A stretch of 64,000 nucleotides of DNA from a virus, in IMG/VR virus record IMGVR_UViG_3300045988_119718, positions 32,001 through 96,000 of that record; one strand, 5' to 3'. The position numbers were made by a program, and so were the translations under genes. The first letter of the stretch is position 1. Each line of letters starts with the position of its first letter. Shown one piece after another: positions 4,954-58,119 of the stretch. The notes under the pieces were generated by a model, which was not told the DNA's origin, made no database searches, and saw only the letters and a list, made by a program, of their open reading frames with translations.

Positions 4954-7221
4954 TTAGAAGTCTTTACCAAAGCATACCTTTTCAAGAGTCTTTACATATA
5001 CCTCAGTAAAAGTGCGTTTCATAACACTTGATGTACCAGTAGGTGCATAATCAGAATAGGGATCACCAAAATTTTCAAGATAATATTTAAGGTTAAGTAC
5101 GTATGGTACAGTATTGCTTGCAATAATGTATTTTGCTAAAAGCTTAGCTGCTTTTCTCTGTCTATTATAGTTGTAGTCATTAAGGGATCTATTAGACCCA
5201 TCTAAAACAAAATAGCAATGCTCGTTATTGGATTCGCTAATATTGCATTTACCAATAAGATTTCCACCCTTAACGATTTCTTTATAAATCTTATAAGAGC
5301 GTCTCTTATGCTGATGAGCAATTAATACATTATTGTATGCATGTTCCATAAACCAAAGGAAAGCAGGGATAAAGTCTCTTTGATAAATAAATTCCGTAAG
5401 AATATAATACATCTTATTGTATTTATTACTATTTGGTCTTTGTTTATTAATAGTTTCCTGTACCTTTTCTTCATTAGTATGTTTATGATCTTCTGCTTTA
5501 GTTTCTTTTGAAACTTCTTCTTCTTTTGGTGAAGATCCTTCAGTATTTTTACCTACAATCTCATCCAGTTTATTAGATAACTCTTTTACAGCTTTGTTGA
5601 AGTCATTCATTGCTTCTTTATTATCTTTTTCTTTTTCTCCATCAAATTCCTGTGTAGCTTTATCATACTTAGGTGCATCATTTTGCATAGATGATGGAAT
5701 ATAATTAATGCTAATTTTCTCCGTAGAAAAACCAGGTGCTCTATAAATATTGATAGGTGCATCAATACCATCAATCGGTTCAATGCCAGTAGTTTTAAAC
5801 ATAATATTTCTCCTTTTCAAAGAATCAGACTCATCATCTACTACGGTATACTGTGAAGAAGATAATCCGACCCAATGCTCATTAAAGCTAGTAGGCGGAT
5901 TTTTAATCTTAACATCCTTAAGTTTAGGACAATTCTTAAACATATCGGTACACCATTTGCAAGATTTCATATCAATGATACCTTTAATAGTAGTAAGATT
6001 GTAGCAGTTTTTAAACATATAAGACATATTTTTTACTTTAGAAGTATCAAAGTTAGATAAATCCAATGTAGTAAGACTAGTACAATCACCGAACATACAC
6101 TCCATATCATCTACATTAGACGTATTAAAACTAGATAAATCTAATGACGTAAGACCATGGCAATTAAAGAACATAAAGCTCATATTGGTTACTTTAGATG
6201 TATTAAAGCCAGATAAATCTAATGTAGTAAGACTACGGCAACTATTAAACATACTACTCATATTAGTTACTTTAGACGTATTAAAGTAAGTAAATAAATC
6301 TAATGAAGTAAGACCACTACAATGATGGAACATATACTCCATATTTGTTATTTTATCATCGATTATAACATTAGCTTGACCTGAAAATTCCAGTATATCA
6401 ATTACATGAGATTCATCAGCCCAAATCTTACTGTACCATGGAGCACTACCTGTAGATAAAAATGCCAATTTGTGATCATACTCATCATCTACTATGGTAT
6501 ACTGAGATTTAGAAAGCCTACTATACTTTTCAAATTTGTCAGGTGGATTCTTAATCTTAACACCTTTAAGCTTAGTACAATTCATAAACATATCACTATA
6601 CCGTTTACATGACTTCATATCGATTACACCTTTAATAGTAGTAAGGTTAGAGCAACCATCAAATATGCTAAGCATATTTTCTACATTAGAAGTATCAAAG
6701 TTAGTTACATCCAATGAAGTAAGACTAGTACACTTACTAAACATAAGACCCATATCTCTTACATTAGAAGTATTGAAGTTGGATAAATCTAATGAAGTAA
6801 GTTTAGAACAGCCACTGAGCATAAAGCTCATATCAGTTACATTAGAAGTATCAAAACTAGATAAATCTAATGAAGTAAGAGAAGAACACTGATGAAACAT
6901 ATTAAACATATCTTTTACTTTAGAAGTATCAAAGTTAGATAAGTCTAATGATGCAAGATTGTAGCAATAGGCAAACATATTCCTCATATTAGTTACTTCG
7001 GATGTATTAAAATTAGACAAATCCAATGAAGTAATACAATGGCATTCATTAAACATACTGCCCATATTAGTTACACCTTTGCATGTAACTGTAGCTTGAC
7101 CAGATATAGATTCATCCATGTTAATAAATTTATCCTCATCAACCCACGGCATCCAATAATAATTACTATCAGTAAACCATGGAGCATTACCTTTGGCTAT
7201 ATATACCTGCTCTTTAGACAT
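4954..7221 (-). CDS. BspA-type leucine-rich-repeat (LRR_5-like) surface/adhesin protein, 755 aa
   Basis: About 14 tandem ~23-aa repeats of the form LTSLDLSNFDTSKVTNMSFMF.C. Two repeat blocks, each preceded by a 'G.APW....ES.SGQA.V' module. RBS AAAGGAGAAG before ATG at 7221. Confidence 0.8.
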   Translation of the reverse strand: MSKEQVYIAKGNAPWFTDSNYYWMPWVDEDKFINMDESISGQATVTCKGVTNMGSMFNECHCITSLDLSNFNTSEVTNMRNMFAYCYNLASLDLSNFDTSKVKDMFNMFHQCSSLTSLDLSSFDTSNVTDMSFMLSGCSKLTSLDLSNFNTSNVRDMGLMFSKCTSLTSLDVTNFDTSNVENMLSIFDGCSNLTTIKGVIDMKSCKRYSDMFMNCTKLKGVKIKNPPDKFEKYSRLSKSQYTIVDDEYDHKLAFLSTGSAPWYSKIWADESHVIDILEFSGQANVIIDDKITNMEYMFHHCSGLTSLDLFTYFNTSKVTNMSSMFNSCRSLTTLDLSGFNTSKVTNMSFMFFNCHGLTSLDLSSFNTSNVDDMECMFGDCTSLTTLDLSNFDTSKVKNMSYMFKNCYNLTTIKGIIDMKSCKWCTDMFKNCPKLKDVKIKNPPTSFNEHWVGLSSSQYTVVDDESDSLKRRNIMFKTTGIEPIDGIDAPINIYRAPGFSTEKISINYIPSSMQNDAPKYDKATQEFDGEKEKDNKEAMNDFNKAVKELSNKLDEIVGKNTEGSSPKEEEVSKETKAEDHKHTNEEKVQETINKQRPNSNKYNKMYYILTEFIYQRDFIPAFLWFMEHAYNNVLIAHQHKRRSYKIYKEIVKGGNLIGKCNISESNNEHCYFVLDGSNRSLNDYNYNRQRKAAKLLAKYIIASNTVPYVLNLKYYLENFGDPYSDYAPTGTSSVMKRTFTEVYVKTLEKVCFGKDF

Positions 7222-13464: not shown

Positions 13465-15870
13465 TTACTTTTTCTCCGTTACACTTTTAATTACTTTTCT
13501 AAGTATTGGAATACGTCTCTTTTCAAACGTCTTTACTAACTTTACGTTTTCAATGAGTTGTTCATCTGTATTTGAAATCTTAAGAAGAGAATTAATAGCA
13601 TTATTAATTTTTTCTTCTTTGGATACTTCAGAATTTCCTAATACTTTAATATCAGTACTATTATCATACATATCCACCAGCATAGCTCTAGCTTTATTAT
13701 AGCCTTCACCAGTAACTTTAACAGGTAATTTAGTAATGACCTGTCTGTATGAATCTGGTTTAACTCTAGAGATAGCTCTTCTTAAAATTGGGACTCTAAG
13801 TTTCTTAGGAACTTTCTTGAATTCCAATTTAAGACCTAAGCACTTTAAATATGCATTAGCTATTTCTACATTTCTAGATTTAGCATTTTCATCCAATACA
13901 ATATTTCTATCGAATGGATCACCAATCAATAACTGCTTCATCATTCGTCTAGCTGTTGGAGCAGTAGACAACATCATGAGAGCTTCTACAGTGAACTGGC
14001 ATTCTGGTAACTGCATTAACTCAGATGCTTCCATACCACCAATTCTAACTGGAGTTTTAGCTATTGGAGAAATATGCATTTTATTAGCTTTAGTCTTAGT
14101 ATTCTCACCTCTAATATTGGTAGATGCCAATGATACAGCAGAGAACTTTTCTTCAGCTAATTGTTTTAGACGGTAGATATATTTCTTACCAACTACTAAT
14201 GGTCTATTAGTTCTAATCTTTCTAATATTACCGTTAGAATCTTTCTGATTGACGTACAGATACTCTTCTTTAATCCATGGGAATGTATTATAGATATTCT
14301 TAAGAATCTCTAATGTCATCTCATTTTTCATTGGAGTAATTACTACAGGAATATTTCCACTTTCTATGAGATAATCCATATCTTCAACTCTTACTTCAAT
14401 AGGAGTAGACATAATGATTCTATGAAAATCTGTAGCATAATCCATATTAATCAAAGAGAGATATTTAAGTACAGTTTGCTCAGCGACATCGACAACAGTC
14501 GATCTATTAAGATAAGACATGCCCTCCATCAAATCATCATGCTTAGCAGGATACCAATACGTACCAATAGCTTCAAGAAGTTTAGAGCCAATCCAAGTCA
14601 GTTCAGTTTCAAATGACTGACCTGGATTAAGTCTGTTGATAATGGTAGAAGAGTTATAAATTGCATCTACTGGATACCAATTACCATTTCTATAAAATAA
14701 TGGCATTTGATCATCTGGTAAGATAGCGGAAATAACACCTTTACCACCATATCTATCTGTAATCTTATCACCTTTACGCAGTACTTTATTCTCTCTAGTG
14801 ATAATTCTCAGAATGATATTATTGAATACTTTGTCTTTGATATATGGAATACCATTAGCTGTATCTCTGCACTTACGATATACAGATTGCATATCATAAG
14901 TCATTTTAACCCCAGGATGACTATCTAAGAATTTATCAACTGCTTTATAGAGCTTAATACAGAAATCAATATTCTTATCATAATACTCTTTAAGCTGCTG
15001 ATAATACATATCTTCTAGTTTATCTGGGTTATTGCAATATACATCAATATCAACAATTTCCCCATCGGAAATATATGTAGTATCAGAAATCATTAGCTGT
15101 TTAAGTCTTTCTTTAGACTGACTATAAAGAGCTTCATCATCTTTTCTTTCTCTTCTAATAGCACATACAATAGAATCTTTAATCTTCTCTCCGATATTTG
15201 GGAAAGCTTTGTAATAGGTATCATCTCCATACATATTCAATGGGATATCGTTTTCATTAATTACGATTTCAATCTCGTTAAACAATGGGGATTTAAACCT
15301 ATTAGCTGCACTCTGACTAATTACAATAGGGTCTTCTGTAGTCAACCCTAATGCCATATAAACAGTAGTAAGATTAATACCATCAGTCTTATTATCTTCT
15401 TCATCAAATGAATCAGATTTAACCAATGTAGTTCCTTTAGGAATTGTATCTCCTTTATTGAAACTATCTAATCCATCATTGTTTATATTAATACCATAAA
15501 TCTCTGTACGATATTCATAAGTAACTCTTTCTACACAATGAAGCATCTTATGTTCAATATCGTACAATAATGCATAATACTTATTCGCATACTTATAAAT
15601 CTTATCAATCAGTTTATACTGAGCATCTGTTTTAACGTAGTTAGAAGACAAATATGCAAATTTATTTTCATAACCAGTCATAATAATCGGTGTTTCAGCT
15701 TTACATAATTGAATGGATTGTTCTTTCTGAATTCCTTGCATAATCTTTCTGGAACCAGAATTAGTATCATTAAACGGTTGTAATAAGCCTTTACCTAGCG
15801 TATACTCACGCGATGGTAAATTCTTTTCAATTTCATTAGCAGTACTATTTAAATCCAAATTATTTGCCAT
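13465..15870 (-). CDS. Multisubunit RNA polymerase beta subunit, C-terminal half (split rpoB-like, jumbo-phage type)
   Basis: DRYGGKGVISAILPDDQMP...VDAIYN...RLNPGQSFETEL matches rpoB GRHGNKGVISKI.P.EDMP...VDIVLNP...RMNIGQILETHL. N-terminal FNDTNSGSRKIMQGIQKEQSIQL...ETPIIMTGYE matches the rpoB NMQRQAVPL region. GGMEASELMQL matches GEMEVWALEAYG. Confidence 0.8.
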   Translation of the reverse strand: MANNLDLNSTANEIEKNLPSREYTLGKGLLQPFNDTNSGSRKIMQGIQKEQSIQLCKAETPIIMTGYENKFAYLSSNYVKTDAQYKLIDKIYKYANKYYALLYDIEHKMLHCVERVTYEYRTEIYGININNDGLDSFNKGDTIPKGTTLVKSDSFDEEDNKTDGINLTTVYMALGLTTEDPIVISQSAANRFKSPLFNEIEIVINENDIPLNMYGDDTYYKAFPNIGEKIKDSIVCAIRRERKDDEALYSQSKERLKQLMISDTTYISDGEIVDIDVYCNNPDKLEDMYYQQLKEYYDKNIDFCIKLYKAVDKFLDSHPGVKMTYDMQSVYRKCRDTANGIPYIKDKVFNNIILRIITRENKVLRKGDKITDRYGGKGVISAILPDDQMPLFYRNGNWYPVDAIYNSSTIINRLNPGQSFETELTWIGSKLLEAIGTYWYPAKHDDLMEGMSYLNRSTVVDVAEQTVLKYLSLINMDYATDFHRIIMSTPIEVRVEDMDYLIESGNIPVVITPMKNEMTLEILKNIYNTFPWIKEEYLYVNQKDSNGNIRKIRTNRPLVVGKKYIYRLKQLAEEKFSAVSLASTNIRGENTKTKANKMHISPIAKTPVRIGGMEASELMQLPECQFTVEALMMLSTAPTARRMMKQLLIGDPFDRNIVLDENAKSRNVEIANAYLKCLGLKLEFKKVPKKLRVPILRRAISRVKPDSYRQVITKLPVKVTGEGYNKARAMLVDMYDNSTDIKVLGNSEVSKEEKINNAINSLLKISNTDEQLIENVKLVKTFEKRRIPILRKVIKSVTEKK

Positions 15871-26251: not shown

Positions 26252-26523
26252 AATAAAACTTCCTTTCTGCTCTATTATAAGAGCAACTCATAATATATTA
26301 ATAAGACTAATGCCTTATCATAGATATAATATATATATGATTTTTATATTACTTTTTATCAATCTCTGGTCAATAAAAAGTAACATTAAAGTAAGCAATG
26401 TATATTTATATAACGGTGGTGGATATATATTGCTTCATAGATAACGATTAAGGTGCGGATTGTCTATCTATGGCACTGTTGTTGAATTCATCTTTCGGTG
26501 CGATTTTTTTCATGTTACTTCTC

Positions 26524-26578
26524 CTAAAAATAACGGTATATACCCCTAGGCGATAGGACACGCCTAGGGGTATATACT
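26524..26578 (-). terminator. Strong rho-independent terminator (17-bp G+C-rich perfect stem)
   Basis: gtatatacccctaggcg-ataggaca-cgcctaggggtatatac followed by ttattttt on the minus strand, after the topoisomerase medium subunit. Confidence 0.8.
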
Positions 26579-26585
26579 GCCGTAA

Positions 26586-35454: not shown

Positions 35455-35618
35455 TTTACTTCCTCCAATTAAATATAATTACTAAATATAATAGTAGTAA
35501 TGGATTGTTTCTAATATACTTATTTTTAATACCTATAGAATAGGATTACAAAAAATAAAGATAGAATTTATATTATCCCTAATAGGAATAGAAGTATACG
35601 TAATCTTATTATGGAAGA

Positions 35619-35660
35619 TAAAAAATAAAGGGCGGTCATAAGACCACCCTTTATTTTGCT
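35619..35660 (-). terminator. Rho-independent terminator
   Basis: aaagggcggtcataagaccacccttt followed by ttatttt. Confidence 0.65.
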
Positions 35661-35682
35661 TATTCATTTTTGAAATGAATAA

Positions 35683-37314
35683 TTAATGCTTAGGGAAAAC
35701 TACAGGATTGTAGATTCCATCGAAACCTCTAATCGTAGAGTTGAGGTCAGTTACATTTTTGTACAGCTGGCACTCTGGGTTGTACTTGCGAATAGATTTG
35801 AATACTTCACCAACTCTATTCTTTTCATCTTCATCTGAATCCGAGTTATTAACAACCCAGTTTACAATATCAGACAAGAAGATAGCTTTCTTAGCATCGT
35901 AAACAACCTTATCAAAGTCAGTGGATGGAGTTGGGATAGAAACTGGTTTGGGTTCTTCCTTTACCACTTCTTTTACCTCTGGTTCTACAACCTCCTCTTC
36001 TTCTACTGCTGGAGTGCTATTAGCATGAGTTGGGTAATCGATCTTGATTACAGTTGAAGAATTGTCAACAGGAACAAACTCTCTATTGATCAGGTTGTAT
36101 TTTCTAGCGAGATCAATGAACTCATTACTTGCACCTACAGCATTGAAAGCATTGCTGTTGATGTCATGTTTCCACCAATCAATGTATCTTTCATAAGACG
36201 GAATCAAATCAATCAGCCGATTATCGAAAATGTATTTGGCAATGATATTTTTATCAAATACCAAAACATCTTTTACTTCTTTACCGTTATGGCACAGGGT
36301 ATGCTTATCCGGCAAATACCCCATATCTTTAACACCCTCAATGAAATCTTTCAAAGAGAATGTTGCGTCTTTACGGTAGAAGAGAGCATAATACGTTTTC
36401 AGCAACCGCTTCAAACCAACAGGATTGAAAATCAACAGATTCTTTGTCTGAGTTGCACAGACTACGCTGTCGTTCACATTTTCATTGAAGAAGTAATCAA
36501 TGCCCATGTACAGCGGGAAGTACCAAATCAGATTTAACAGTACTCTGCGATAATCATCCACTTTATGCACTGGGGTGCTTACTGTTTTGTGCCCTCCGAC
36601 ATATGGATTGATATCAGTAACGATGAAATTTTCCAAATCACGATTCATACTAGAAGATTTGAGATAATAACTATTAACGTCATTCTCTTCTTCTTTGTCG
36701 AATCTAATAGCTGGTGGTTCTTCTGTTTTGGTAGAAACCACTAAAGTGATATTAGGAGCAGTATTATTAAAGGTTACACCACCCATATTTTTTGCTTTAG
36801 CATCATTAAGCAGCAGCTGTACACCGGCTCTGGTGAAAACATAGACACCAGAGATTTCTTTTGCCAGATATTCATCGACCAGTTGTGGCAGATTCTGCTT
36901 GATGAGATTTTTGATATCTCCATTGTAGTAGACTTTAGAAATTTTGAAGATTTCTTTTACGTCATCTACAGAGAAGATATCTCTGATATCATTGGTGGCA
37001 GGCTTGAAGAATCTGTTTTCTTTCTTCTTGAAATCCATGATAGACTTCTCGATATACTTGTGAATAATTCCTCTCAAAATACCGAGTCTGCCCTGTGCAG
37101 CAGCCTGTACATCATACACTCTGATGAAGCCAGAAACAAGTTCTCTGGTATTTGCTTCATCCAGATTGTAAATAACGTCAGAGAATTTCTCGATGTTTTC
37201 AACCAATGGTTTGATATCGAGATTTGCTTCTTTGCAAATAGCGTCATGAACCGAAACAAAAACCGGTACAATGTATACTTCTTTTGTAACTTTTTCAAAC
37301 AGTTCTTTACTCAT
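35683..37314 (-). CDS. Hypothetical abundant protein (543 aa), codon-optimised
   Basis: Long ORF in a visibly G+C-richer stretch, resembling the capsid gene's composition. No motif recognised. Confidence 0.55.
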   Translation of the reverse strand: MSKELFEKVTKEVYIVPVFVSVHDAICKEANLDIKPLVENIEKFSDVIYNLDEANTRELVSGFIRVYDVQAAAQGRLGILRGIIHKYIEKSIMDFKKKENRFFKPATNDIRDIFSVDDVKEIFKISKVYYNGDIKNLIKQNLPQLVDEYLAKEISGVYVFTRAGVQLLLNDAKAKNMGGVTFNNTAPNITLVVSTKTEEPPAIRFDKEEENDVNSYYLKSSSMNRDLENFIVTDINPYVGGHKTVSTPVHKVDDYRRVLLNLIWYFPLYMGIDYFFNENVNDSVVCATQTKNLLIFNPVGLKRLLKTYYALFYRKDATFSLKDFIEGVKDMGYLPDKHTLCHNGKEVKDVLVFDKNIIAKYIFDNRLIDLIPSYERYIDWWKHDINSNAFNAVGASNEFIDLARKYNLINREFVPVDNSSTVIKIDYPTHANSTPAVEEEEVVEPEVKEVVKEEPKPVSIPTPSTDFDKVVYDAKKAIFLSDIVNWVVNNSDSDEDEKNRVGEVFKSIRKYNPECQLYKNVTDLNSTIRGFDGIYNPVVFPKH

Positions 37315-46231: not shown

Positions 46232-46308
46232 AATGTTTATTCCTCCTTAAAAAACACTACTATAATAAAATACGTCATAATTATAATATACAATTTGAGG
46301 TGATATTA

Positions 46309-46677
46309 ATGATTAATAACCCTAATGTACAAGATACCGAGATAGCTATCTTACTGACTACTTGCAATAAGTATGAACCAGGAGAACAAGTTTTTAGAAT
46401 GCAGTCTTTAACTGGGTTAAAAGATAATACTAATAATATAAGTAGAATTAGTTTAAGTAAAACTAATATCTTAAATAAGAATACTGGTAATCTACCTCTA
46501 GGAGATGTAGGTATAGCATCTGCAATAAAGCTTAAAGTTCCTGTAGAAGTTTCAAGACGATACCCTCTTAAATTTATACCTCCTGGAACTAGATTCATAG
46601 TAAGTTTTACAAGTAGTGATATTACTAAACCAGTTATTATAGGAGGAGAATTCTATGGCAACGACAGTAATAGTTGA
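46309..46677 (+). CDS. Hypothetical protein (~122 aa)
   Basis: Start placed at the ATG 5 nt after GAGGTGA. The antisense ORF 46281..46598 is rejected. Confidence 0.45.
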   Translation: MINNPNVQDTEIAILLTTCNKYEPGEQVFRMQSLTGLKDNTNNISRISLSKTNILNKNTGNLPLGDVGIASAIKLKVPVEVSRRYPLKFIPPGTRFIVSFTSSDITKPVIIGGEFYGNDSNS

Positions 46678-47101
46678 TGGTTCTACCAATCCAATGTATT
46701 CTCATACATTAGATGAATTTAAAGCTGCATATAATAACCGAAGTGTAGTACCGATTTATGAAAGCTTTTGTTATCAAGAACAGTCAGGTGGAATAAAATA
46801 TGTAGTGAAAGATGTACTAGACGATTATATGTATGAGCTAAAGAAGTTAGCTATAAATATAGAATTAACTAATGATGAATTAGTTAAGTACAATTATAAA
46901 CCAAAACTGTTATCTGCTGATATATATGGTTTGACAGATTTCTATTATTTGATATTATTACTAAATGGGATATGTAATGTAAAAGAATTCCATAATATCA
47001 ATCCATTAAAACTCATACCAGCTGATACTTTAGGGAACTATTTATCATCTATACTAACAAATGAATCTAAAAATATAAAAAGATTTAATTCTTATCATTA
47101 A
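46655..47101 (+). CDS. Hypothetical protein (148 aa)
   Basis: ORF overlapping the upstream gene by 23 nt. Followed by a terminator. Confidence 0.45.
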   Translation: MATTVIVDGSTNPMYSHTLDEFKAAYNNRSVVPIYESFCYQEQSGGIKYVVKDVLDDYMYELKKLAINIELTNDELVKYNYKPKLLSADIYGLTDFYYLILLLNGICNVKEFHNINPLKLIPADTLGNYLSSILTNESKNIKRFNSYH

Positions 47102-47112
47102 AATCCAAATTA

Positions 47113-47155
47113 TTACAAGATAGCTATATAGCTATCTTGTAATATAATGTTTTGA
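47113..47155. terminator. Bidirectional terminator between convergent genes (13-bp perfect palindrome)
   Basis: ttacaagatagctatatagctatcttgtaa followed by tataatgttttgag. Confidence 0.7.
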
Positions 47156-47160
47156 GATAA

Positions 47161-48750
47161 TTAGAATTCGATAGAATCTACACAGTCGTATTTCTTATTC
47201 TTAAGAATCTTAACAAGAGCTTTAAATGGATCAAGCTCATTATTTACTACCATATTCACCATGCTACTAGAGAAACCAGATAACAAAGTTACTCCATTCT
47301 CATTAGTTCTCAAAGGAACATTCTGATCAGCGTAAATAGAAGTATTCCAGAAAATCAGTTTAGGCATCTTATAACCATGTTTTTCATATTTTTCAATGAG
47401 GTATTCAAACAAAGATTGATCTGGTGTAGCACCACATGCATAATCAAATTGCATATCAGATACGATAACAATTCTTTCTGGCATATCTTCTTGTGCAATC
47501 TTATTCTTAATAGCAGTATTAAGAATCAGATTGAATACTTTTTCGATATTAGTATTACCACAATCGTCATATTCACCCAGAATCTTAAGCTTAGCACAAA
47601 GATGATCAGTAGAAGTAGTCAAATCTACAATCTTTGGTTTGCTAGAGAATGTAATGAATTTGTTTTTGAATTCACCAGTATTAAACTGAGACAAGAAGAT
47701 ACAAATAGAATCCCCAATATCCATCGAAGTGAGAGAAGAACTATGTGAAATACAGTTTACCATAGAATAAGAACCATCTCTTACTACGAGAGTATTAGAC
47801 AGCTTCGCTGGAGTTGGCAGATTCTTCCACAGTTGTTCAAGAGAATCATCTTTAGTAACATTAAACCCGTGAGACATATCGCAATGTTCTCTGTATTTAT
47901 GAATGATATCATACATAAACAAAGTACCAGCATTAATAGTAGTTTTACCTTCTTTAAGTTTAGAAAGATAATCTTTTCTACGCTCAGTATCATGCCGTAA
48001 AAATGCATCTTTATACTTCAAGTTGGCATAGCTAGGAACACGTTCATATTCAATTTCTTTCCAGTTATTAGCACTAGTGTCTACTTCTACCACTTTACTA
48101 TGCTTTCTCAAAATAGAAAGCATTTTTCGATACTGTTTACTAGAGAGTTTAAATTCATTAGCAATCCAATTAGCAATCAATTTAGTTTTCTTAGAAGAAG
48201 TATTAATAGAAGGCATCCATTTACCAAGTAATGAGATATGGCAATCCTCATCCAAACTTGTTGCTTTAGCACATTTCTTAATATCTTCATTAAGCTGCTT
48301 AGTAATAATAAACTTAATGCAATCTGTAATTTCTTTAGACGTATCTTTCAATGCATACCAAATATAGATTAAGTCATCCCATCTACCAAAATCATTTTGG
48401 ATATTGCATTTCTCAATAATTTCAAGAGCTACTTTTGGATATTTCATAGCAAAATCTACGAATAAAACTCTAAATGAGTTTCTTTCACCAGCACCATTCT
48501 TAATGTCTCTCAGATAAAGCAACCATCTAATAGCCAAGTTTTTATCTTCACTATATGCTTTAGTAAAAGTATTTTCAAACTTATAAGGATTATTTCTCAA
48601 AGATGGAATATTATAATTCAAATCCAAAAGATATTCTCCAGTTGAAGCATAAGTGGTAGCACCATTTGCAGTAGTGGTTACTTCATTTAAAGTTTCTTTG
48701 TCCATCAGTTTCATAATATCAGTCATGATTCTCCTCCTAAATAAATACAT
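47161..48750 (-). CDS. Ro60-like protein (TROVE-like N-terminal region + von Willebrand A domain)
   Basis: MIDAS motif LVVRDGSYSM (DxSxS) and IVIVSDMQFD block. Both arrangement and several segments parallel Ro60/Rsr (LLAVDVSASM, FIVFTDNETF). Confidence 0.45.
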   Translation of the reverse strand: MYLFRRRIMTDIMKLMDKETLNEVTTTANGATTYASTGEYLLDLNYNIPSLRNNPYKFENTFTKAYSEDKNLAIRWLLYLRDIKNGAGERNSFRVLFVDFAMKYPKVALEIIEKCNIQNDFGRWDDLIYIWYALKDTSKEITDCIKFIITKQLNEDIKKCAKATSLDEDCHISLLGKWMPSINTSSKKTKLIANWIANEFKLSSKQYRKMLSILRKHSKVVEVDTSANNWKEIEYERVPSYANLKYKDAFLRHDTERRKDYLSKLKEGKTTINAGTLFMYDIIHKYREHCDMSHGFNVTKDDSLEQLWKNLPTPAKLSNTLVVRDGSYSMVNCISHSSSLTSMDIGDSICIFLSQFNTGEFKNKFITFSSKPKIVDLTTSTDHLCAKLKILGEYDDCGNTNIEKVFNLILNTAIKNKIAQEDMPERIVIVSDMQFDYACGATPDQSLFEYLIEKYEKHGYKMPKLIFWNTSIYADQNVPLRTNENGVTLLSGFSSSMVNMVVNNELDPFKALVKILKNKKYDCVDSIEF

Positions 48751-48950
48751 TACTTATTACGTCTATTCCATTTTAACTTTTCAAAATTTTTAAATAGGTT
48801 TATAGAGTCTGTAAACTTAGGTACAGACTCTAAACCACATTTATCGCATTTGAAAGAGTATAATTTATTGGTTTCATCATAAATGATTTTTAAAAAAGAA
48901 TGCTTATTGCATATAGGACATTTTATATTCTTTAACTTAATCTCTATCAT
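48750..48950 (-). CDS. Small zinc-ribbon protein (66 aa)
   Basis: CPICN...CDKCG. Translationally coupled between the helicase and Ro60-like genes. Confidence 0.45.
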   Translation of the reverse strand: MIEIKLKNIKCPICNKHSFLKIIYDETNKLYSFKCDKCGLESVPKFTDSINLFKNFEKLKWNRRNK

Positions 48951-50632
48951 GATGTAACCCTTTCTATTACTACTCTCATTTTGGGTACGTCAGAAATAAA
49001 TCCTTCAAATTCATCTAAATCCGCAATAGGTTCGCTTTCCAACATAGCGTTCTTAGCAAACCGATTATTATCATTAGTAAAGATACTAGCATTTTCATCA
49101 TATACTAAACTATACTTAGCAGCTGGTTGAAAACAATTTACATCTTCTACTAATTTAATAGTATTGCCTTGTACAAATGGCTGATAGAATCTAGTGGCTC
49201 CTGCATCAATATCAACTCTATAACGGTGCTTTGTAATCTTAATACCTAAATATTTTACTCCATCTTTTTCACATGGAATAATAAGAATAGTAGCATCCAG
49301 ATTTTCATCAATAAGAGAAGATTCACCTATATTAGCTCTACCTACACCATTCATCATTTTATCAAATCTATCATTTGTTCTAGCTTCATCTACAGTTCTA
49401 GCAGCTTCTCTATTAAGCTGAGATGCTGTAATGACTGGTATTTTGTATTCTACAGCAAAGTTTTTAAACTCGTTAATTACATTACCAAGTCTAAATCTTT
49501 CATCCATAGTATTACCAAATACTGGTCTAATACGCTTTATATAATCCTGAAATACGGCTATAGTTTCAAATCCTTTATCAGCATATTCCTCTACTAATGA
49601 ATATAGATAACTAGTATCTACAGAATTAATAGGAGCATATCTTAAGTGAATTGCAATATCACCTGGTTCAGAACATCTTAATCCAGATTTTTCCATATTA
49701 GCCATAACTTGTTTTGCTGTTGGCCCATTTGGGTCTTTAAGATTTTCAGTAAATCCTGCAATATTATACATGGACTGAAATTCTTCATCAGGCTGGTTTT
49801 CCATTGAAAGATAGATAATACAAGGTTTCTTTGTTTTATCTTTACATTCATACCCTCTATTGTATAATGCTACTTGGTAAGCTAAGTTCTTAAGTAAAGT
49901 AGATTTACCCTCACCAGCTAGACCAAACATAGAATATACTCTACCGCCTTCAAATCCACCAGCTAGAATTTTATTAAATGCTTGCATCCCAGTTTTAAGA
50001 ATATGAGATGGGCTTCTAATAGTAGTCAAAATCTGATCAATAGCATTACCAGGGTCACCTAAGTTAATACTATTTAAATCATTAGTACTTGCTTGATTTC
50101 TTCTAATCTTATTATTAGCATTCTTAATAATTTCTTTAAGATTATTAGCATTAGTTTGAATAGTACCTGGGTCAGATGTATCTAAAGAAATACATGCAGA
50201 CTTCAGTTCACTAGAGATATCAATCATATCCGCTGTATTCAAATAATCACTAATAACGTTTTGTGCTATCCAAGCTGCATCATTAGTATTTAATTCTGCA
50301 AAGTCATCAGGATTAATGGTTGGATATTTATTTCCAACTACACCAATAGCATCTTTGACATAGAATTCTCTTTTTGTAAGTTTCTTATCCAGCTTAGCAT
50401 GAAGAATATCCAAGCAAAAATTATATCTAGCTAATAGATCTGGTTCATTTGCATATAATCCTGGGTTATTTCGTAATAGTAAAGAACGAAGATTAACTAA
50501 ATTAGAAATTTGAATAGACTGATTTTCAGATAGTGCATATTGGCACATCCAATTCAAAGTTTTTAAATCTAATTTCATACTAGATTTATCTTCATCATCT
50601 TTACGTATTTTTTTATAGCTTCTTCCACTCAT
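48947..50632 (-). CDS. Replicative DNA helicase, DnaB/gp41 family
   Basis: Walker A GLAGEGKSTLL. VFQDYIKRI block (DnaB Walker B-like). ITASQLNREA (LSQLNR motif). Confidence 0.7.
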   Translation of the reverse strand: MSGRSYKKIRKDDEDKSSMKLDLKTLNWMCQYALSENQSIQISNLVNLRSLLLRNNPGLYANEPDLLARYNFCLDILHAKLDKKLTKREFYVKDAIGVVGNKYPTINPDDFAELNTNDAAWIAQNVISDYLNTADMIDISSELKSACISLDTSDPGTIQTNANNLKEIIKNANNKIRRNQASTNDLNSINLGDPGNAIDQILTTIRSPSHILKTGMQAFNKILAGGFEGGRVYSMFGLAGEGKSTLLKNLAYQVALYNRGYECKDKTKKPCIIYLSMENQPDEEFQSMYNIAGFTENLKDPNGPTAKQVMANMEKSGLRCSEPGDIAIHLRYAPINSVDTSYLYSLVEEYADKGFETIAVFQDYIKRIRPVFGNTMDERFRLGNVINEFKNFAVEYKIPVITASQLNREAARTVDEARTNDRFDKMMNGVGRANIGESSLIDENLDATILIIPCEKDGVKYLGIKITKHRYRVDIDAGATRFYQPFVQGNTIKLVEDVNCFQPAAKYSLVYDENASIFTNDNNRFAKNAMLESEPIADLDEFEGFISDVPKMRVVIERVTS

Positions 50633-50679: not shown

Positions 50680-51810
50680 CTATAAATCTTTTAGTAAATT
50701 GACCAAATCGTCAGCAGTAATATAGATTTCTTTCTTACACTGATTAATATATTTAGCTAACTTAGCTTCTGGAGTTAAATTTCTATCAAAGATATAATCA
50801 AAATCTTTATACTTTTCCACTATTTCTTTAGTCTCTTTAGTAATCTCTTCTTTACGAGATTTATCGTTAATTACAACTTCTTTGTTTCCTCTAAAGTAAG
50901 TCTGCAACAGATTAATAGCTTCTGGATTAGATACTGTGAAATCGATTCTAATATACTTAATATTTTCTTCTACTTTTTTTCTCAAAATAAATTGAATTAT
51001 ATCTTTAGGGTCATTATGAATCATATCGTCTAAATTTATAATTGCATATTTATCAGAAATAATGGGTTCATATTGTACTGAGTAAGTATGAGTTGCTATA
51101 TCCTGTAATAAGAATATAAACCCTTTATCTACATCAGCATCAGCAAAGCTCCATCTATATGGAGAACCACAATAATAGAAATGAGAATCAAAGCATCTAG
51201 CATTATGTACATGGCCAGAAATAATTGGCCCTAAGCAATAACCAAAATCATTCATACAGAATACCGGTTCTCTTTGAGAATCTAAATCTGGTAATTCTTT
51301 TCCGTAAATAGAACCAGCATAAGTACCATGCATATAACAACTATCGTATAAACCATTTCCATACATTAATTCTCTGTAGAACTGTTTTCCTTTACCATAT
51401 AATTCTGGAATGCATAAGATACGTTTACCTTTTACGTATTCATATCTACACTCTTCTACAATTCGTATATCACAAACATTTTTAGCCTGTTCTGCTAATG
51501 GATAGAATAATTTAATCTGGTCGGCATCATGAGAGAATGTACCACCAATAATGATTAGAGTAGCATGTTTCATAGCACATACTGCAATTAAATCTTTAAT
51601 GAAGTATTGTGCAACTGTAATAGCATCACTAGATGCCATAAACTTATGGTCAAAAACATCACCATTAATAGATACGATATCTAGAATAGGCATTTTAATC
51701 AGTTTATTAATAAACTGATCTTTTAAAATATTATATTGTAAATTTGGATTCATAGCTCCAAAATGGGTATCTGCAATATGGGCTTCTACAAACATACCAT
51801 CATTAATCAT
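50680..51810 (-). CDS. Calcineurin-like metallophosphoesterase, Mre11/SbcD (T4 gp47)-like nuclease
   Basis: Motifs IADTHFG, NGDVFDH, GHVH. 376 aa. Confidence 0.55.
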   Translation of the reverse strand: MINDGMFVEAHIADTHFGAMNPNLQYNILKDQFINKLIKMPILDIVSINGDVFDHKFMASSDAITVAQYFIKDLIAVCAMKHATLIIIGGTFSHDADQIKLFYPLAEQAKNVCDIRIVEECRYEYVKGKRILCIPELYGKGKQFYRELMYGNGLYDSCYMHGTYAGSIYGKELPDLDSQREPVFCMNDFGYCLGPIISGHVHNARCFDSHFYYCGSPYRWSFADADVDKGFIFLLQDIATHTYSVQYEPIISDKYAIINLDDMIHNDPKDIIQFILRKKVEENIKYIRIDFTVSNPEAINLLQTYFRGNKEVVINDKSRKEEITKETKEIVEKYKDFDYIFDRNLTPEAKLAKYINQCKKEIYITADDLVNLLKDL

Positions 51811-52409
51811 AACTTTTTACCTCTAACTTCTTTAGACTCATTTTTAATCTCTTCCATTACCATTTCCATATTAGCCATAGCATACGGAAGATATGATTCA
51901 GTGTATTCCATTATCTTAGTTCTAAGTATAGTGATAATATCATTTTTATGTTTCATAATATCTGAAACTGAAGAATATGTAATGGGTATTCCATCTCTGG
52001 ATAAAGTACATGTAAGTTTAGTCAATGCTATAGTATTAGAAATATTAAGGTTAATGGTAACACTAAAATCAGCATCTTTATTATAGAATTGGCATGCAAT
52101 AAAAGTTATCCTGCCGTCTCTATCTTTTCTAGCCTTATACGAAAATTTAGTATTATCATTATTCTTAATAGACATAAATTGATCTTTAATAAACAATTCT
52201 CTTTGTACTTGAGTCTTATCTAAAAAATCAATATATTCAAACAATAGTTCTTCTATAGAATCTATATTCCATACTCTATTTTCAATTTCTTTAGAGATAA
52301 TAAAGTTTATAATTTTGAGTGCGATTTTCTTTAAAAACGAATGTTTATTTAAAAACTCGATAGTATTGATAAAGTAATAATTAGTCATAACTATATCTGA
52401 AATAAGCAT
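51807..52409 (-). CDS. Hypothetical protein (200 aa)
   Basis: ORF overlapping the downstream start by 4 nt. Confidence 0.45.
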   Translation of the reverse strand: MLISDIVMTNYYFINTIEFLNKHSFLKKIALKIINFIISKEIENRVWNIDSIEELLFEYIDFLDKTQVQRELFIKDQFMSIKNNDNTKFSYKARKDRDGRITFIACQFYNKDADFSVTINLNISNTIALTKLTCTLSRDGIPITYSSVSDIMKHKNDIITILRTKIMEYTESYLPYAMANMEMVMEEIKNESKEVRGKKL

Positions 52410-52524
52410 TTTACACTCCTCCTTATCAATTAATTTAATGTAATTTTAGAAATAGATTGCTATATTTTAGAACTATAAAAACATACTAATAATTTAATCA
52501 TTTAAAAGAAAGGATGTAGCTTTT

Positions 52525-53520: not shown

Positions 53521-56500
53521 ATGGATTATGAAACCTTGATAAATCTAAAGTTCAAACGAACTGAAGGTAGTGTAGATTTAACCAAGTCTAAATGGTCTTC
53601 AGTAGTAATAAATGAAGCTAACTATAGAGAAGAAACGGTGGACTATAGTTCAGCTGGAAGATTTGATAACGGAGAAGCCGCATATTTAGACGGTGAATTT
53701 TCGGTTATTAATAAGATTACTGGCAAGAACCTAAGCCTAGATTTAAATGCGGACGAATTTACGTTTGCATTATGGGTAAACTGTGATTTTACTAAGATGA
53801 ATATGAAGCAGTATTTACTCTGCGGTAATAATCAAATTAAAAACTCTAATAACTCTATATACCTACAACCAGACAAATTTAAAACTAATATGTCTATAGT
53901 ATTAGTTTCATCTACTGGTACTAAAATAGAAATTCCATTTATTGAAAATAGTGGATTAATATTAACTGGTAGATGGGTATGGCTAAGATTAACTAAATCT
54001 AATGATAATAAAATTAATTTTTATATAAATAATGAATTAATAGGAACTTCTAGTGTTATAACTTCTTCTTTTAAATTAATATTTAATAATAATGAAACCT
54101 GCATAGGTAAAGGCTATGATGCTGATTATCTGTATTACCCACATTTTAAAGGATATATAGATGATTTTGTATTAGTAAAAGGATTATCATATAATAAAGC
54201 TAAAGTACCTAGTACATATTTCTTAAATGAAATAGATCCATCTTTATTAGAAGATGCAGCTAATGTATGGGATGAAAAAGAAAGAGAATTTTCACAGTAT
54301 GATTCTATTACTAATGCAATAGAATGGAAAAGGTTTAATACTAAAGAAGAAATAGATAAAAGAGAACAAGCTTTAATTCCATATATGCTTACTCCTATAT
54401 GGAAACAATGCGATATTAATCTTCCTACTTGGATTAAACCTGTATTAACCAATCCTTATAGAATCAATGATAAAGTAATTTATAATATAAACCAAATTTA
54501 TAATAATACTATAGACTTTAATACAGAATATCCTGATGCAGCTAATGGGTGGAAACTCATTCATAATACCTTAGATGATATTAAAGAATGGGAAAAACCT
54601 AATAAATACTATAATTATATGGATAAAGTGTTATATAATAAGAGAGTCTATCAATCTCAAGTAAATTATAATACAGAGTTACCAGCTGCATGGATGGTAT
54701 TAACGGCTCTTACTAATTCAGAAAAAGAAGAATTAGATGATGATATCTATAAATGGAATAAAGAAATAGAATATGCATTTAAAGATAGGGTAAAATATAA
54801 TAACAAATATTATATTTCTATTATGAATAATAATTTAGGGTATATACCAGGAGATACTACATATTGGAAAGAAGTAGGTGGTGGTACCAGTTTTATTACA
54901 GATTGGGTTAAGCCTACTACTTACAAAAATGGAGATATAGTTTCTTATAATGGTAAATATTATCATTCTAATATCGATTATAATATCTTAACTCCAGGTA
55001 ATCATCATGTAGAATGGACTGAAATAACTTATTGGGAACAACCAAAGTATAAAAATGTATATGTAGATGGTGATAAAGTATTCTATAAAGGAAAGACTTA
55101 TATTTGTAATTTAGCTAAAGATAGTTCAGGAAATTACAAATACCATGAATACTCTATAGTAGCACCAGATAAATATGTAAATAAAAAGTATTATAAAGCA
55201 TTATATCATATAATCCCAGAAGGTGGGAATTACTATGATCCAAGAGATGTAGAATCAATATTTTGGCAGGAAATACCTAAAACTCAAATAACAGATTACT
55301 CATTATATAAGGAATGGGTTAGAGGTAATGTATATAATACTGGTGATTTAGTAGTAGCTACTGATTATGACTGGAAACAAACTTTTATATCTGAAGGGTT
55401 CTTCCAGAATAAGCAGTTTACTATAGATCGAGATGATACCACTATTAAGATTAAACTCTATGATGCTTGGGATAATCATTATTTGAGTAATGATAAAGAT
55501 AGAATCTATTTTAAGAAAAACTATCTAGAAGCATTTAATCTAATTGAAGTTGATGGATATATCTTAATGATAAATAATAAATTTATTAAATGGACTGATA
55601 TAGATATAATTAGATCAGATAGATTTGTAACTTTATCTATTAAAAAACCATCTTCATTTGTAGTTAAAGATGTGGTATTAATTAGATTACCATGTAAAGT
55701 TATTTATTCTGAAACTGGATATATGCCAGACAATGGTATTAAACTGTTTGGTTTTGATACTAATGGCAATTTTGGTAGTGATATAAATATCTATGCTGTA
55801 AATAATAGACTTAGAGAATTAGTTTATACTGATACTAAGTTTGATAATATATTTATAGATACAAACTTAGATCATAAAATTACTAGGTCTAATCTATTCG
55901 TATTTGATGAAGATGGTAAATTCATAACTAGAGATAATTATACTATCTCTTCTGCTAATATATTTACCTATATACCTATTGATACTGATAAAAAGTATAC
56001 TTTATATTGTATATGGGATGATACAGAGAACTCTAATGAAGATAATTTAGCTTTAATACCTAATGATATTAGAGTTAGACAATATCTTAGAAATTATAAT
56101 ACCAATACAAATATGGATAATGATTATCCTGTAGATTTGCAGCAATTAAATAAAGAGTTTGATTATAGTGTAGTACGGCATACTAGTGATAAACGTTATG
56201 ATGATAATATCTCTAATTCTATGAATGGTATATTTAATTATAATAAGAATAAGTTTGATTCTGTATATGAAGAAGTAAGACCAGTAAACATAGAGGAATA
56301 TTCTGAGGCTTATATGAACTCTTTAAAGAGAAATATAAGGATAACCATAGATGAAACTAATTTGCCTCAATTACTTCATTCTTATATAGTAGAAGGTACT
56401 GACTTAATAGAACTTTGTGATGAGAATAAAAATAAATATATTGGTAAAACAGTAATAATGAAATTAAGACAATATCTTTCGGTTACTCTTACTAAAAGTA

Positions 56501-58119
56501 ATATAGATTCTTATGTAGGTAAAGTAGCTATAGATGGTTCTGATAATATCATTATTACAGAAGATAATAAGAATAATCTTATTGGTAAAACAGTTAAGTT
56601 TAATACTAGTGGTTTATTTATTGATAATACTGTAAATAATTTTGATAGTATTATAATGAGTAGAGATATTTATAATAAGTATGATTATAAAAACAATACT
56701 TATGTAATGCTATTTAAACGTGGTATGCTGCCAGAATGGTATAATAAAATTCAATATACCAATGATAAATTCTATTTCACTGATATACCTAGAGCTGATT
56801 ATAGGACTATTTATATGGAAGAGTATGAAAAGCAATATATCCAAGTAATGGGTAAAGAAGGGGAATTTTACAATGGTAAAACTACTAGATCGTTTAAAGT
56901 AGAAGATGGGACTGATTTTGAAACTGGTTATGAAATATCAGTAATTGCAGATTATGGCTATACAGCTGGTAAGGTTAAAGAATCCCCTGGTATTGTAACT
57001 AGTGATTCTTGGATTAGAGCTTATGAACCAGAAATAAACTTCTATACTGTAACTGTAGTTACCTCTCCTCATCAACATATTAAAGCCACTATTATCAGCA
57101 ATAAAGAAGGATATGATTTATCTACTTTGGAAAAATTATCATATACTGATACTACATTTAGAGTTCCTTACAATACTACAGTTAATTTTGAATTAACTGC
57201 TGATAAAGGATATACAGCTGGAGAATTAAATTATAACTCTATTGTTGTAACTAAAGATACTACTATTAAAGCTGCAAGAGAAGCAGACACTAATGATTAT
57301 ACTATTAGAACAGCTAATTTGTATAAAGATATTATCGATATAAGTATAGAATATAAAGATAAAGAATATAAAGATGTTACTGTTAATGCTAAATATGCTG
57401 ATACATTTAAGGTCATTATAAAAACTCTTAACGATAGATATGTATACAATGGAATAGAATATAATGAAGATACTATGCACAAAAATGATGATGGTTCATA
57501 TACTTTATTAGAAGATACTGTGATATCTGTAAAACAACCATTAGAAAACGCTCATAGATTCTATATCTACGATAACTCTGATATGGATATAACCGCTAAA
57601 AATTATGGCATTGATAATAAACTGATATCTTCTTGCAGTATAAATGAAGATATGAAAATTATTAATAGAGATATAATTAAAGTCAATGTTAAGCCAAATA
57701 GTAATTATAATGCGGCTATTCCATTATTAATAGAAGGTACTCCTAAAGCATTAGTAAAGCCTGATAACGAAAATAACCAAGCTGAATTAAATTACACTAT
57801 TACTGCTGGAGAAACAGATATTAGTATTAGAGCATCTGATACTAAGATTAGATACTTTACTATTAATATTCCTAATAAAGATAATCAGACTATTACGATT
57901 AAATATGTAAACCCAGTTGATAGTGGTACTTATACTACTATTAAGTCCGTAAGTGTACCATATGGTACTATATATACAATTACAGTAACTCCGAATGAAG
58001 GATATAATGCTGGTACAGCTAATCCTTCTAGTGGTACAGTAACCAGTACTGTAAATATCAATGTAACAGATGCTACTAAGATTAGATATAAAGTTTACCT
58101 TAATGCTGGCAATGGTTAA
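53521..58119 (+). CDS. Giant fibre/receptor-binding protein (1532 aa) with N-terminal LamG/concanavalin-like jelly-roll and C-terminal Ig-like repeats
   Basis: FTFALWVNCDF...GRWVWLRL pattern of LamG_3-type lectin domains. Repeated ...GYTAG... Ig-like modules near the C-terminus. RBS ATAGGAGTAATAAT. Confidence 0.6.
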   Translation: MDYETLINLKFKRTEGSVDLTKSKWSSVVINEANYREETVDYSSAGRFDNGEAAYLDGEFSVINKITGKNLSLDLNADEFTFALWVNCDFTKMNMKQYLLCGNNQIKNSNNSIYLQPDKFKTNMSIVLVSSTGTKIEIPFIENSGLILTGRWVWLRLTKSNDNKINFYINNELIGTSSVITSSFKLIFNNNETCIGKGYDADYLYYPHFKGYIDDFVLVKGLSYNKAKVPSTYFLNEIDPSLLEDAANVWDEKEREFSQYDSITNAIEWKRFNTKEEIDKREQALIPYMLTPIWKQCDINLPTWIKPVLTNPYRINDKVIYNINQIYNNTIDFNTEYPDAANGWKLIHNTLDDIKEWEKPNKYYNYMDKVLYNKRVYQSQVNYNTELPAAWMVLTALTNSEKEELDDDIYKWNKEIEYAFKDRVKYNNKYYISIMNNNLGYIPGDTTYWKEVGGGTSFITDWVKPTTYKNGDIVSYNGKYYHSNIDYNILTPGNHHVEWTEITYWEQPKYKNVYVDGDKVFYKGKTYICNLAKDSSGNYKYHEYSIVAPDKYVNKKYYKALYHIIPEGGNYYDPRDVESIFWQEIPKTQITDYSLYKEWVRGNVYNTGDLVVATDYDWKQTFISEGFFQNKQFTIDRDDTTIKIKLYDAWDNHYLSNDKDRIYFKKNYLEAFNLIEVDGYILMINNKFIKWTDIDIIRSDRFVTLSIKKPSSFVVKDVVLIRLPCKVIYSETGYMPDNGIKLFGFDTNGNFGSDINIYAVNNRLRELVYTDTKFDNIFIDTNLDHKITRSNLFVFDEDGKFITRDNYTISSANIFTYIPIDTDKKYTLYCIWDDTENSNEDNLALIPNDIRVRQYLRNYNTNTNMDNDYPVDLQQLNKEFDYSVVRHTSDKRYDDNISNSMNGIFNYNKNKFDSVYEEVRPVNIEEYSEAYMNSLKRNIRITIDETNLPQLLHSYIVEGTDLIELCDENKNKYIGKTVIMKLRQYLSVTLTKSNIDSYVGKVAIDGSDNIIITEDNKNNLIGKTVKFNTSGLFIDNTVNNFDSIIMSRDIYNKYDYKNNTYVMLFKRGMLPEWYNKIQYTNDKFYFTDIPRADYRTIYMEEYEKQYIQVMGKEGEFYNGKTTRSFKVEDGTDFETGYEISVIADYGYTAGKVKESPGIVTSDSWIRAYEPEINFYTVTVVTSPHQHIKATIISNKEGYDLSTLEKLSYTDTTFRVPYNTTVNFELTADKGYTAGELNYNSIVVTKDTTIKAAREADTNDYTIRTANLYKDIIDISIEYKDKEYKDVTVNAKYADTFKVIIKTLNDRYVYNGIEYNEDTMHKNDDGSYTLLEDTVISVKQPLENAHRFYIYDNSDMDITAKNYGIDNKLISSCSINEDMKIINRDIIKVNVKPNSNYNAAIPLLIEGTPKALVKPDNENNQAELNYTITAGETDISIRASDTKIRYFTINIPNKDNQTITIKYVNPVDSGTYTTIKSVSVPYGTIYTITVTPNEGYNAGTANPSSGTVTSTVNINVTDATKIRYKVYLNAGNG

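Follow-up and report, generated by a model that had tools for sequence, protein, structure and literature searches.

The window analysed here is a stretch of 64,000 nucleotides (nt) of viral DNA (positions 32,001 to 96,000 of IMG/VR record IMGVR_UViG_3300045988_119718), which carries on its minus strand a gene for a protein of the DUF2828/DUF7788 family. An earlier note on this DNA had presented the product as a Ro60-like protein with a TROVE domain and a vWA (von Willebrand factor A) domain, 529 residues in length and encoded in the replication module. Positions given below are those of the window, and residues are numbered in the 529-residue open reading frame (ORF). The gene and its parts are the following.

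47161..48726, minus strand: DUF2828/DUF7788 (Ro60-like) gene, 521 residues from the likely start M9 (ORF list, Pfam, PHROG)
48733..48738, minus strand: Shine-Dalgarno sequence AGGAGG, a perfect match 6 nt 5' of the ATG at 48726 (read from the sequence)
47806..48726, minus strand: N-terminal all-helical domain, residues 9-315 (DUF2828), about 20 helices in the models, predicted to form a TROVE-like alpha-solenoid
47764..47778, minus strand: MIDAS (metal ion-dependent adhesion site) motif DxSxS, D325-G-S327-Y-S329 ('VVRDGSYSM'; translation and conservation)
47164..47805, minus strand: C-terminal vWA domain, residues 316-529 (DUF7788)

The longest reading frame of the gene (47161..48750, minus strand) does encode the 529 residues and the MIDAS motif described in the earlier note, but the length of the product is probably 521 residues. 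The true start is probably the second in-frame ATG, at 48726 (M9), because the AGGAGG lies 6 nt upstream of it and because homologs with 93% identity on four gut-metagenome contigs were all gene-called as 521 residues. Residues T400 and D432 make the MIDAS site complete (DxSxS...T...D). None of the five MIDAS residues varies among 59 homologs, and in a more diverse set of 69 each is conserved to 93% or more; at each of the 72 columns with at least 93% identity in the latter set the window protein keeps the consensus residue, including the MIDAS residues and eight conserved arginines and lysines of the N-terminal domain. The N-terminal domain is basic (isoelectric point 8.8) and the vWA domain acidic (5.4). 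Judged by its sequence, the gene is intact and under constraint.

Profile searches place the protein clearly in the DUF2828/DUF7788 family, which is large and has already been labelled Ro-like by phage annotators. PF11443 (DUF2828) matches with 130.7 bits (cut-off 29; E-value 8e-38; best stretch residues 147-310) and PF25043 (DUF7788) with 133.6 bits (cut-off 27.1; E-value 8e-39; residues 320-505), both above their curated thresholds and in the N-to-C order of the family. The PHROG 850 profile ('RNA-binding protein') aligns residues 9-522 to its positions 1-475 of 476 with an E-value of 4e-112, and no match was obtained in NCBIfam. Full-length relatives were identified with tblastn in 711 phage records at 24-36% identity. 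The phages concerned include Felix O1-like coliphages, Listeria A511-like phages, cluster L mycobacteriophages and phages of Salmonella, Staphylococcus, Enterococcus, Campylobacter, Bacillus, Vibrio and Aeromonas, and their proteins are labelled as hypothetical, DUF2828, vWA-like, 'RNA-binding protein' or, by SEA-PHAGES, 'Ro-like RNA binding protein'. A profile of the 59 homologs matches 8,915 cluster representatives (50% identity) of 1.84 billion. The gene is ordinary for this family and is unusual only in that it ends a DNA-replication operon without a partner RNA nearby.

Relation to Ro60 in predicted fold and in sequence

An AlphaFold model of the full-length protein, built on the 59-sequence alignment (predicted local distance difference test score, pLDDT, 85.6; predicted template modelling score 0.87), was compared with the PDB and BFVD with Foldseek. 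Five PDB entries were matched at an E-value of at most 1e-3, all of which are Ro60 structures (9KOP, 1YVR, 9NEP, 9NF8 and 9NFA), aligned over 526-587 columns with template modelling (TM) scores of 0.53-0.62. The best of these, 9KOP, was recovered with an E-value of 3.8e-9 (TM 0.55/0.62, 526 columns, 16% identity), and the PDB matches ranked below Ro60 were solely isolated vWA domains with E-values above 0.01. When residues 1-315 were modelled alone (pLDDT 82), 9KOP was the single outlier match, although a weak one (probability 0.98, TMq 0.43, E-value 0.12), and every other match had a probability of at most 0.30. In BFVD, the top of the ranking was taken by phage and giant-virus proteins of the DUF2828/DUF7788/vWA type (TM about 0.8), with the next places held directly by annotated TROVE proteins of the uncultured phage cr111_1 (E-value 2e-8) and the Gordonia phage VanLee ('Ro-like'; E-value 3e-6). 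A Ro60-like architecture, in which the vWA domain would close a helical ring, is thus supported at the level of the predicted fold.

At the sequence level, membership of the TROVE family is not supported. The TROVE profile (PF05731), which the earlier note had put forward for the N-terminal part, matched neither the window protein at an E-value of 0.1 or below nor any of the 59 homologs at 1 or below. Sequence searches of the PDB with the protein and with the 59-sequence profile found no Ro60, a BLASTP comparison with mycobacteriophage Bxz1 gp220, which we confirmed as a TROVE + vWA_Ro60 protein, was not significant, and neither was a profile-profile comparison (hhalign) of the N-terminal half with TROVE/Ro60 (E-value 0.45). 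The vWA_Ro60 domain (PF25045) was matched by 15 of the 59 homologs (best E-value 5.9e-6), the window protein itself giving no match, and VWA_2 by 35. Against a first, narrow Ro60 alignment, consisting of Bxz1 gp220 and its relatives, hhalign aligned the MIDAS region only (E-value 1.2e-4, probability 56%). Once D. radiodurans Rsr and the Ro60 proteins of Xenopus and human, all transcribed from HMMER alignments, and ten distant phage homologs had been added, the probability rose to 89% and the E-value improved to 2.5e-6 over 419 columns, the confident columns all lying in the vWA domain. By these comparisons, the Ro60-type sequence affinity reaches only the C-terminal vWA half, where the parallel to Ro60 drawn in the earlier note is supported by the complete, conserved MIDAS, the vWA_Ro60 matches among the homologs and the hhalign alignment.

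The vWA domain, the MIDAS site and the predicted fold therefore fit the Ro60-like (TROVE + vWA) description, whereas a TROVE similarity in sequence is not supported. Profiles assign the N-terminal part to a domain of unknown function (PF11443), an outcome that the earlier note had itself counted against its proposal, and yet the full-length predicted fold matches Ro60 structures. The best structural match, 9KOP, is the Ro60 encoded by Thermus phage phiLo (phiRo60; also 9L5Y; PMC12135203), and with the canonical Ro60 profile it is recovered at an E-value of no better than 9e-5. A proven phage Ro60 can thus be nearly as distant from TROVE as the window protein. We are somewhat inclined to regard the window protein as a sequence-divergent structural relative of Ro60/Rsr, with a predicted basic alpha-helical solenoid and a vWA domain with an intact MIDAS.

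RNA genes beside the family and the operon of the window gene

The surroundings of the family were examined in 80 IMG/VR loci with flanks of up to 10 kb. Transfer RNA (tRNA) genes were present in 44 of these loci, in 42 of which the gene is separated from the nearest one by 49-873 nt, and all of the tRNAs found share the strand of the DUF2828 gene, as do the annotated tRNAs of the reference phage loci. When the IMG/VR and other fetched loci were dereplicated at 70% protein identity into 35 lineages, the nearest tRNA was within 873 nt in 25, at 1.7-2.3 kb in two and at 7-8 kb in another two, with none in the flanks of six, including the window lineage. An array of 25 tRNAs begins 167 nt downstream of the gene in Citrobacter phage Mordin, one of about 20 ends 613 nt upstream of it in Bacillus phage Tsamsa, and the last of five annotated tRNAs ends 243 nt upstream in Campylobacter phage CP81. 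Listeria phage A511 and Enterococcus phage EFDG1 both have a tRNA array upstream, and in A511 the genes for RtcB, an RNA ligase and an HD phosphohydrolase are located downstream. No published link of DUF2828 proteins to tRNA arrays or YrlA was found in a literature search.

Rfam matches to YrlA (RF02553), a Y RNA-like RNA that mimics a permuted tRNA, were identified upstream of the gene and on its strand in at least two distant relatives, where the records do not annotate them:

EFDG1 (NC_029009), 4426-4533, 4604-4727 and 2997-3097, gene strand: YrlA matches
IMG/VR locus L077, 8426-8539 and 9516-9614, gene strand: YrlA matches

Two of those in EFDG1 are placed in the 678-nt gap directly upstream of the gene (44.9 bits, E-value 9e-7; 34.2 bits, E-value 1e-3), and one further match is inside the tRNA array. 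In L077 a match of 42.7 bits (E-value 4e-6) is situated about 1.5 kb upstream. As a positive control, the true TROVE gene of Bxz1 gave a YrlA match of 32.5 bits, weaker than these three upstream matches in EFDG1 and L077. The phage YrlA-like matches do not overlap canonical tRNAs and their tRNA-like core fits well. Five of them were aligned, although MAFFT misregistered the helices. A regular-expression search for the permuted T-arm/D-arm module mostly caught junctions between tandem tRNAs; the hits that were kept had been filtered against ARAGORN and partly checked with Rfam, and a candidate in locus L009 was not confirmed. Taken together, the adjacency of the family to tRNA and YrlA-like genes supports a Ro60-like role centred on tRNAs or Y RNAs.

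Several other RNA features were observed at these loci. In A511 (NC_009811), a match to ROOL RNA (RF03087; 4510-5061; 87.5 bits, E-value 3e-16), just under the gathering score of 99.1, has the tRNA array on one side and the DUF2828 gene on the other, and a tRNA that is unannotated in the record (5350-5420; 52.5 bits in Rfam, tRNA-Met by ARAGORN) overlaps the annotated coding sequence gp179 ('ribosome associated inhibitor A; zinc finger domain'). In L084 (9462-9603 and 9613-9729) and L088 (9266-9384 and 9586-9702), the DUF2828 genes are immediately preceded by over-long sequences of 117-142 nt that match the tRNA model at 42-47 bits but are not among the ARAGORN calls; these could be insertion-bearing tRNAs or RNAs that resemble tRNA. 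A HEARO RNA match above the gathering score (RF02033; L008, 10168-10394; 112.6 bits) follows the DUF2828 gene at a distance of about 600 nt and adjoins a lysozyme gene. In L009 the DUF2828 gene is embedded in an array of 22 tRNAs that opens with a predicted suppressor tRNA (anticodon TTA; 3351-3421), with genes for a Band_7 protein and an RNA ligase downstream.

The setting of the window gene is a different one. ARAGORN found no tRNA gene in the 64-kb window, and Rfam gave no match there at gathering scores, with none to YrlA, Y_RNA or tRNA even at an E-value of 10 or below. The regular-expression search for the permuted T-arm/D-arm module was likewise empty in the window, and the T-loop motif occurred in its gaps at chance frequency only, so that the statement of the earlier note that no tRNA-like Y RNA is evident in the flanking DNA holds across the full 64 kb. 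Candidate non-coding RNAs in the intergenic gaps of the window were rejected, the GC-richer gaps being terminator hairpins or unremarkable folds. The flanks that adjoin the window in its own genome (L097 and L100; 7-9 kb on each side) contain no tRNA according to ARAGORN. A 231-kb IMG/VR contig carries a copy of the gene with 85% identity, and about 100 kb of this contig, within about 119-231 kb, was surveyed. This relative has no tRNA from about 129 to about 170 kb and genes for tRNA-Ile (UAU), tRNA-Ser (UGA) and tRNA-Gln (UUG) at about 123.6-124.5 kb, a place some 88 kb away from the gene, on the opposite strand; no YrlA match was obtained in the surveyed part at an E-value of 1 or below. 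By the measure of Chen et al. (2014; PMC4201824), a Y RNA or YrlA encoded on the gene's strand and no more than about 4 kb away, the genes of EFDG1, L077 and the control Bxz1 have such a neighbour and the window gene has none. The search in that study was limited to genomes annotated with TROVE.

The features around the window gene are listed below.

47111..47144, both strands: perfect 15-bp hairpin between convergent genes, terminator-like, ending the operon (terminator scan and sequence)
48750..48950, minus strand: zinc-ribbon ORF of 66 residues with four cysteines (CPIC...CDKC), weak matches to zinc-ribbon families only
48947..50632, minus strand: divergent DnaB-like replicative helicase, 561 residues (PF20307, E-value 4e-33; DnaB_C, 4e-9; PHROG 3213 and 19)
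50680..51810, minus strand: SbcD-like nuclease gene (PHROG 100, E-value 1e-19)
51807..52409, minus strand: ORF of 200 residues in the same block (ORF list)
52410-52524: divergent intergenic region upstream of the minus-strand block (ORF list)

The Ro60-like gene is the last gene of this operon, co-oriented and tightly coupled with the zinc-ribbon and DnaB-like genes. The zinc-ribbon ORF shares the 4 nt at its start with the stop of the helicase gene and ends 23 nt before the M9 start, and the terminator scan predicted no minus-strand terminator-like site between the genes of the operon. The claim that the gene forms one operon with the zinc-ribbon protein and the replicative helicase is thereby borne out. 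The gene order of the minus-strand block is repeated in loci L002-L005, and the helicase and zinc-ribbon neighbourhood is retained only in relatives with 85-93% identity, the more distant members having other contexts. The zinc ribbon was rejected as a conserved partner, since the ORF is found upstream of the DUF2828 gene only in the window lineage (L002 and L013). We consider it most likely that the position after the helicase gene reflects shared early or middle expression and not a role in replication.

In a lineage without tRNAs (27 loci in the series L024-L073, the contigs reaching about 212 kb) there is another partner, a conserved acidic ORF of 118-124 residues upstream that is translationally coupled to the DUF2828 gene (overlap or a gap of 0-7 nt). 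Convergent to the window gene, and within an otherwise minus-strand replication block, are two small plus-strand ORFs (46300-47101; 125 and 148 residues). This pair is kept in close relatives, and the 148-residue ORF weakly resembles the baseplate wedge protein gp53 (E-value 3e-3).

The window is part of the genome of a gut jumbo phage of about 250 kb, and the same proteins are encoded on a 252,690-bp ENA contig. Genes were also seen for an RNA-polymerase beta-like protein (Rpb2_6 domain), an NAD-dependent DNA ligase, Cpn60, NrdD and topoisomerase II subunits (13465-15870 and 53521-58119, and loci L097 and L100). An ORF of 1532 residues is weakly assigned to 'RNAP beta' by the PHROGs and has only a faint CBM_5_12 match in the Pfam table; it may be structural. 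A perfect GC-containing hairpin of about 20 bp (26445-26585) between a plus-strand ORF and a topoisomerase II gene, for which the folding z-scores of the two strands are -5.6 and -5.4, probably acts as a terminator in both directions. Weak matches to MicX (RF01808) on both strands at 35555-35762 (about 30 bits, compared with a gathering score of 75) overlap the AT-rich gap at 35455-35682 and probably represent a palindromic element, not MicX.

Function and comparison with known systems

We cautiously favor the hypothesis, giving it slightly better than even chances, that the product of the window gene is a Ro60-like ring protein with structured or tRNA-like RNA as its ligand, and that this RNA or the MIDAS face brings it into contact with host RNA-processing enzymes. 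On or in its ring, the protein would bind structured, tRNA-like or misfolded RNA, as do Ro60, Rsr and the Ro60 of phiLo. Transfer RNAs and tRNA mimics are the candidate ligands because the family adjoins phage tRNA arrays, YrlA-like RNAs and RNA-repair genes. The bound RNA or the MIDAS face might then engage a host RNA-processing enzyme, for example an exoribonuclease, and the outcome would be a control of the quality or turnover of RNA, probably tRNA, during infection. In the window lineage the gene would have been separated from the RNA genes, so that its partner may be an RNA encoded far off in the genome of about 250 kb, or an RNA of the host. Several observations weigh against this hypothesis. 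The window contains no tRNA, YrlA or other candidate partner RNA, and the surveyed part of the 231-kb relative yields only the three ordinary and distant tRNAs on the other strand. The six lineages without a tRNA in the flanks examined imply that the tRNA adjacency is not obligatory. Moreover, the phage YrlA-like hits fit YrlA poorly both in its Ro60-binding outer stem and in its GNCGAA motif, and no report of experimental RNA binding by any DUF2828 protein was found in a literature search, which returned only genome announcements and mentions in passing.

We also considered that the ring may serve as a decoy in host takeover or anti-defence, blocking host enzymes that attack tRNAs or other RNAs (an anticodon nuclease, PNPase or another exoribonuclease) with no part in the quality control of phage RNA, which we regard as rather unlikely. 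Phage RNA-repair genes are thought to counter tRNA-targeting host defence, and members of the family adjoin such genes (RtcB, RNA ligase) as well as tRNA arrays; a Tad2-like gene and other accessory genes are present in the same genome region. In the phiLo system, furthermore, the Ro60-Yrl complex lowers the activity of host PNPase in vitro (PMC12135203). None of the PADLOC defence models is matched by the window protein, however, and the mechanism overlaps with that of the RNA-binding ring protein that we favor to such an extent that sequence analysis cannot separate the two. Still less probable is a superficial likeness to Ro60, with a generic vWA domain joined to an unrelated helical N-terminus and a tRNA adjacency that merely reflects a shared variable accessory region. 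Such an explanation could account for the non-significant comparison of the N-terminal profile with TROVE, the modest E-value of the N-terminal model alone against 9KOP and the high root-mean-square deviations of the Foldseek matches, and the shared strand with the tRNAs is weak evidence against it because the gene and the tRNAs are co-oriented within one module. It would leave unexplained that no other solenoid in the PDB, with or without a vWA domain, comes near Ro60 (the next full-length match has a probability below 0.2 and the next N-terminal match at most 0.30), that 15 homologs have specific vWA_Ro60 matches, that YrlA-like RNAs occur upstream and on the same strand in two distant relatives and that 25 of the 29 lineages with a tRNA in the flank have it within 873 nt.

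The operon itself could suggest an accessory factor for replication that works free of RNA, with the vWA/MIDAS domain making metal-dependent protein contacts, as in Ku80 and Rea1/MDN1, and the solenoid serving as a scaffold for the helicase, zinc-ribbon and SbcD-like proteins. The gene is indeed the last in an operon with these three, with overlapping or closely spaced coding regions and an order that is kept in the relatives with 85-93% identity; RNA genes were not found nearby, Ku80 and the MIDAS domain of Rea1 are among the isolated vWA matches, and several relatives lie within a few kb of an exonuclease, helicase or NrdD gene. We nevertheless judge this role to be quite improbable, since the linkage to the helicase and zinc ribbon is confined to one lineage while the others have different upstream genes and contexts, the recurrent neighbours over the 35 lineages are tRNA arrays and not replisome genes, and the full-length predicted fold matches Ro60 and no replisome component. 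With that linkage confined to one lineage, the suggestion in the earlier note that the protein may have been co-opted finds no support as far as replication is concerned.

A more far-reaching idea, to which we assign only a small chance, is that the DUF2828/DUF7788 proteins constitute a second and much larger branch of viral Ro60-like ribonucleoproteins, with ligands that are transcripts of phage tRNAs and mimics of tRNA (YrlA-like RNAs, possibly ROOL), and that in the window lineage the protein would have been uncoupled from the RNA genes and wired into the replication operon. If so, the window protein would work on host or distant RNAs, or would have gained a role in the replisome, where it might, jointly with the helicase and the zinc-ribbon protein, handle RNA of primers or R-loops. 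Taken alone, the window gene matters little, being one more member of a family that is already labelled as Ro-like or RNA-binding. The family, which counts thousands of phage clusters and has relatives by structure among giant viruses, matters more, and its tie to tRNA arrays and YrlA-like RNAs is a more useful lead than the window gene. These RNA genes and the RNA-repair genes lie beside it in phages that can be cultivated, such as A511, EFDG1 and the Felix O1-like phages, and RNA binding in such phages would tell whether RNA surveillance of the Ro60 type is a common phage function and what the tRNA arrays need it for. The window lineage would then represent a natural case of a protein that acts without an adjacent RNA gene.

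Among the known systems, the stand-alone vWA/MIDAS domains (the MIDAS domain of Rea1/MDN1, the vWA domain of Ku80, TRAP) share the vWA fold and the MIDAS motif with the window protein (Foldseek ranks 6-15), but they match only the C-terminal 200 residues or so (E-value above 0.01, TMq about 0.2) and have no equivalent of the N-terminal solenoid. With canonical Ro60/Rsr (Xenopus, human, D. radiodurans Rsr and Bxz1 gp220) the window protein shares the predicted overall architecture and a MIDAS-bearing vWA domain, the affinity of which is weak but specific, and the association with YrlA is shared at the level of the DUF2828 family. Unlike these proteins, it has no TROVE signal in its sequence and no adjacent Y RNA, whereas the YrlA match of Bxz1 is located about 190 nt upstream of gp220.

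The Ro60 of phage phiLo is likewise a phage protein of about 500 residues that is very divergent from TROVE and consists of a helical ring and a vWA domain, an architecture that is predicted for the window protein. The two have 16% identity and no sequence-level match in either direction. The phiLo protein binds two Y-like RNAs that are encoded directly upstream of its gene and forms complexes with host PNPase, attenuating its activity (PMC12135203), the binding of RNA and PNPase having been demonstrated, whereas no Y-like RNA lies upstream of the gene in the window. The closest kin are the DUF2828/DUF7788 proteins themselves, exemplified by Listeria A511 gp178, Enterococcus EFDG1 gp143, Citrobacter Mordin gp053 and mycobacteriophage LeBron gp53 ('Ro-like'). 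Most of these relatives have phage tRNAs within 0.9 kb, and some have YrlA-like RNAs or RNA-repair genes, whereas the window gene follows genes for a zinc ribbon and a DnaB-like helicase in 64 kb of DNA without a tRNA. What the window protein has in common with them is the two-domain architecture and all of the family-invariant residues, including those of the MIDAS, in a full-length homology of 28-36% identity to proteins of isolated phages and 41-93% to those of metagenomic phages.

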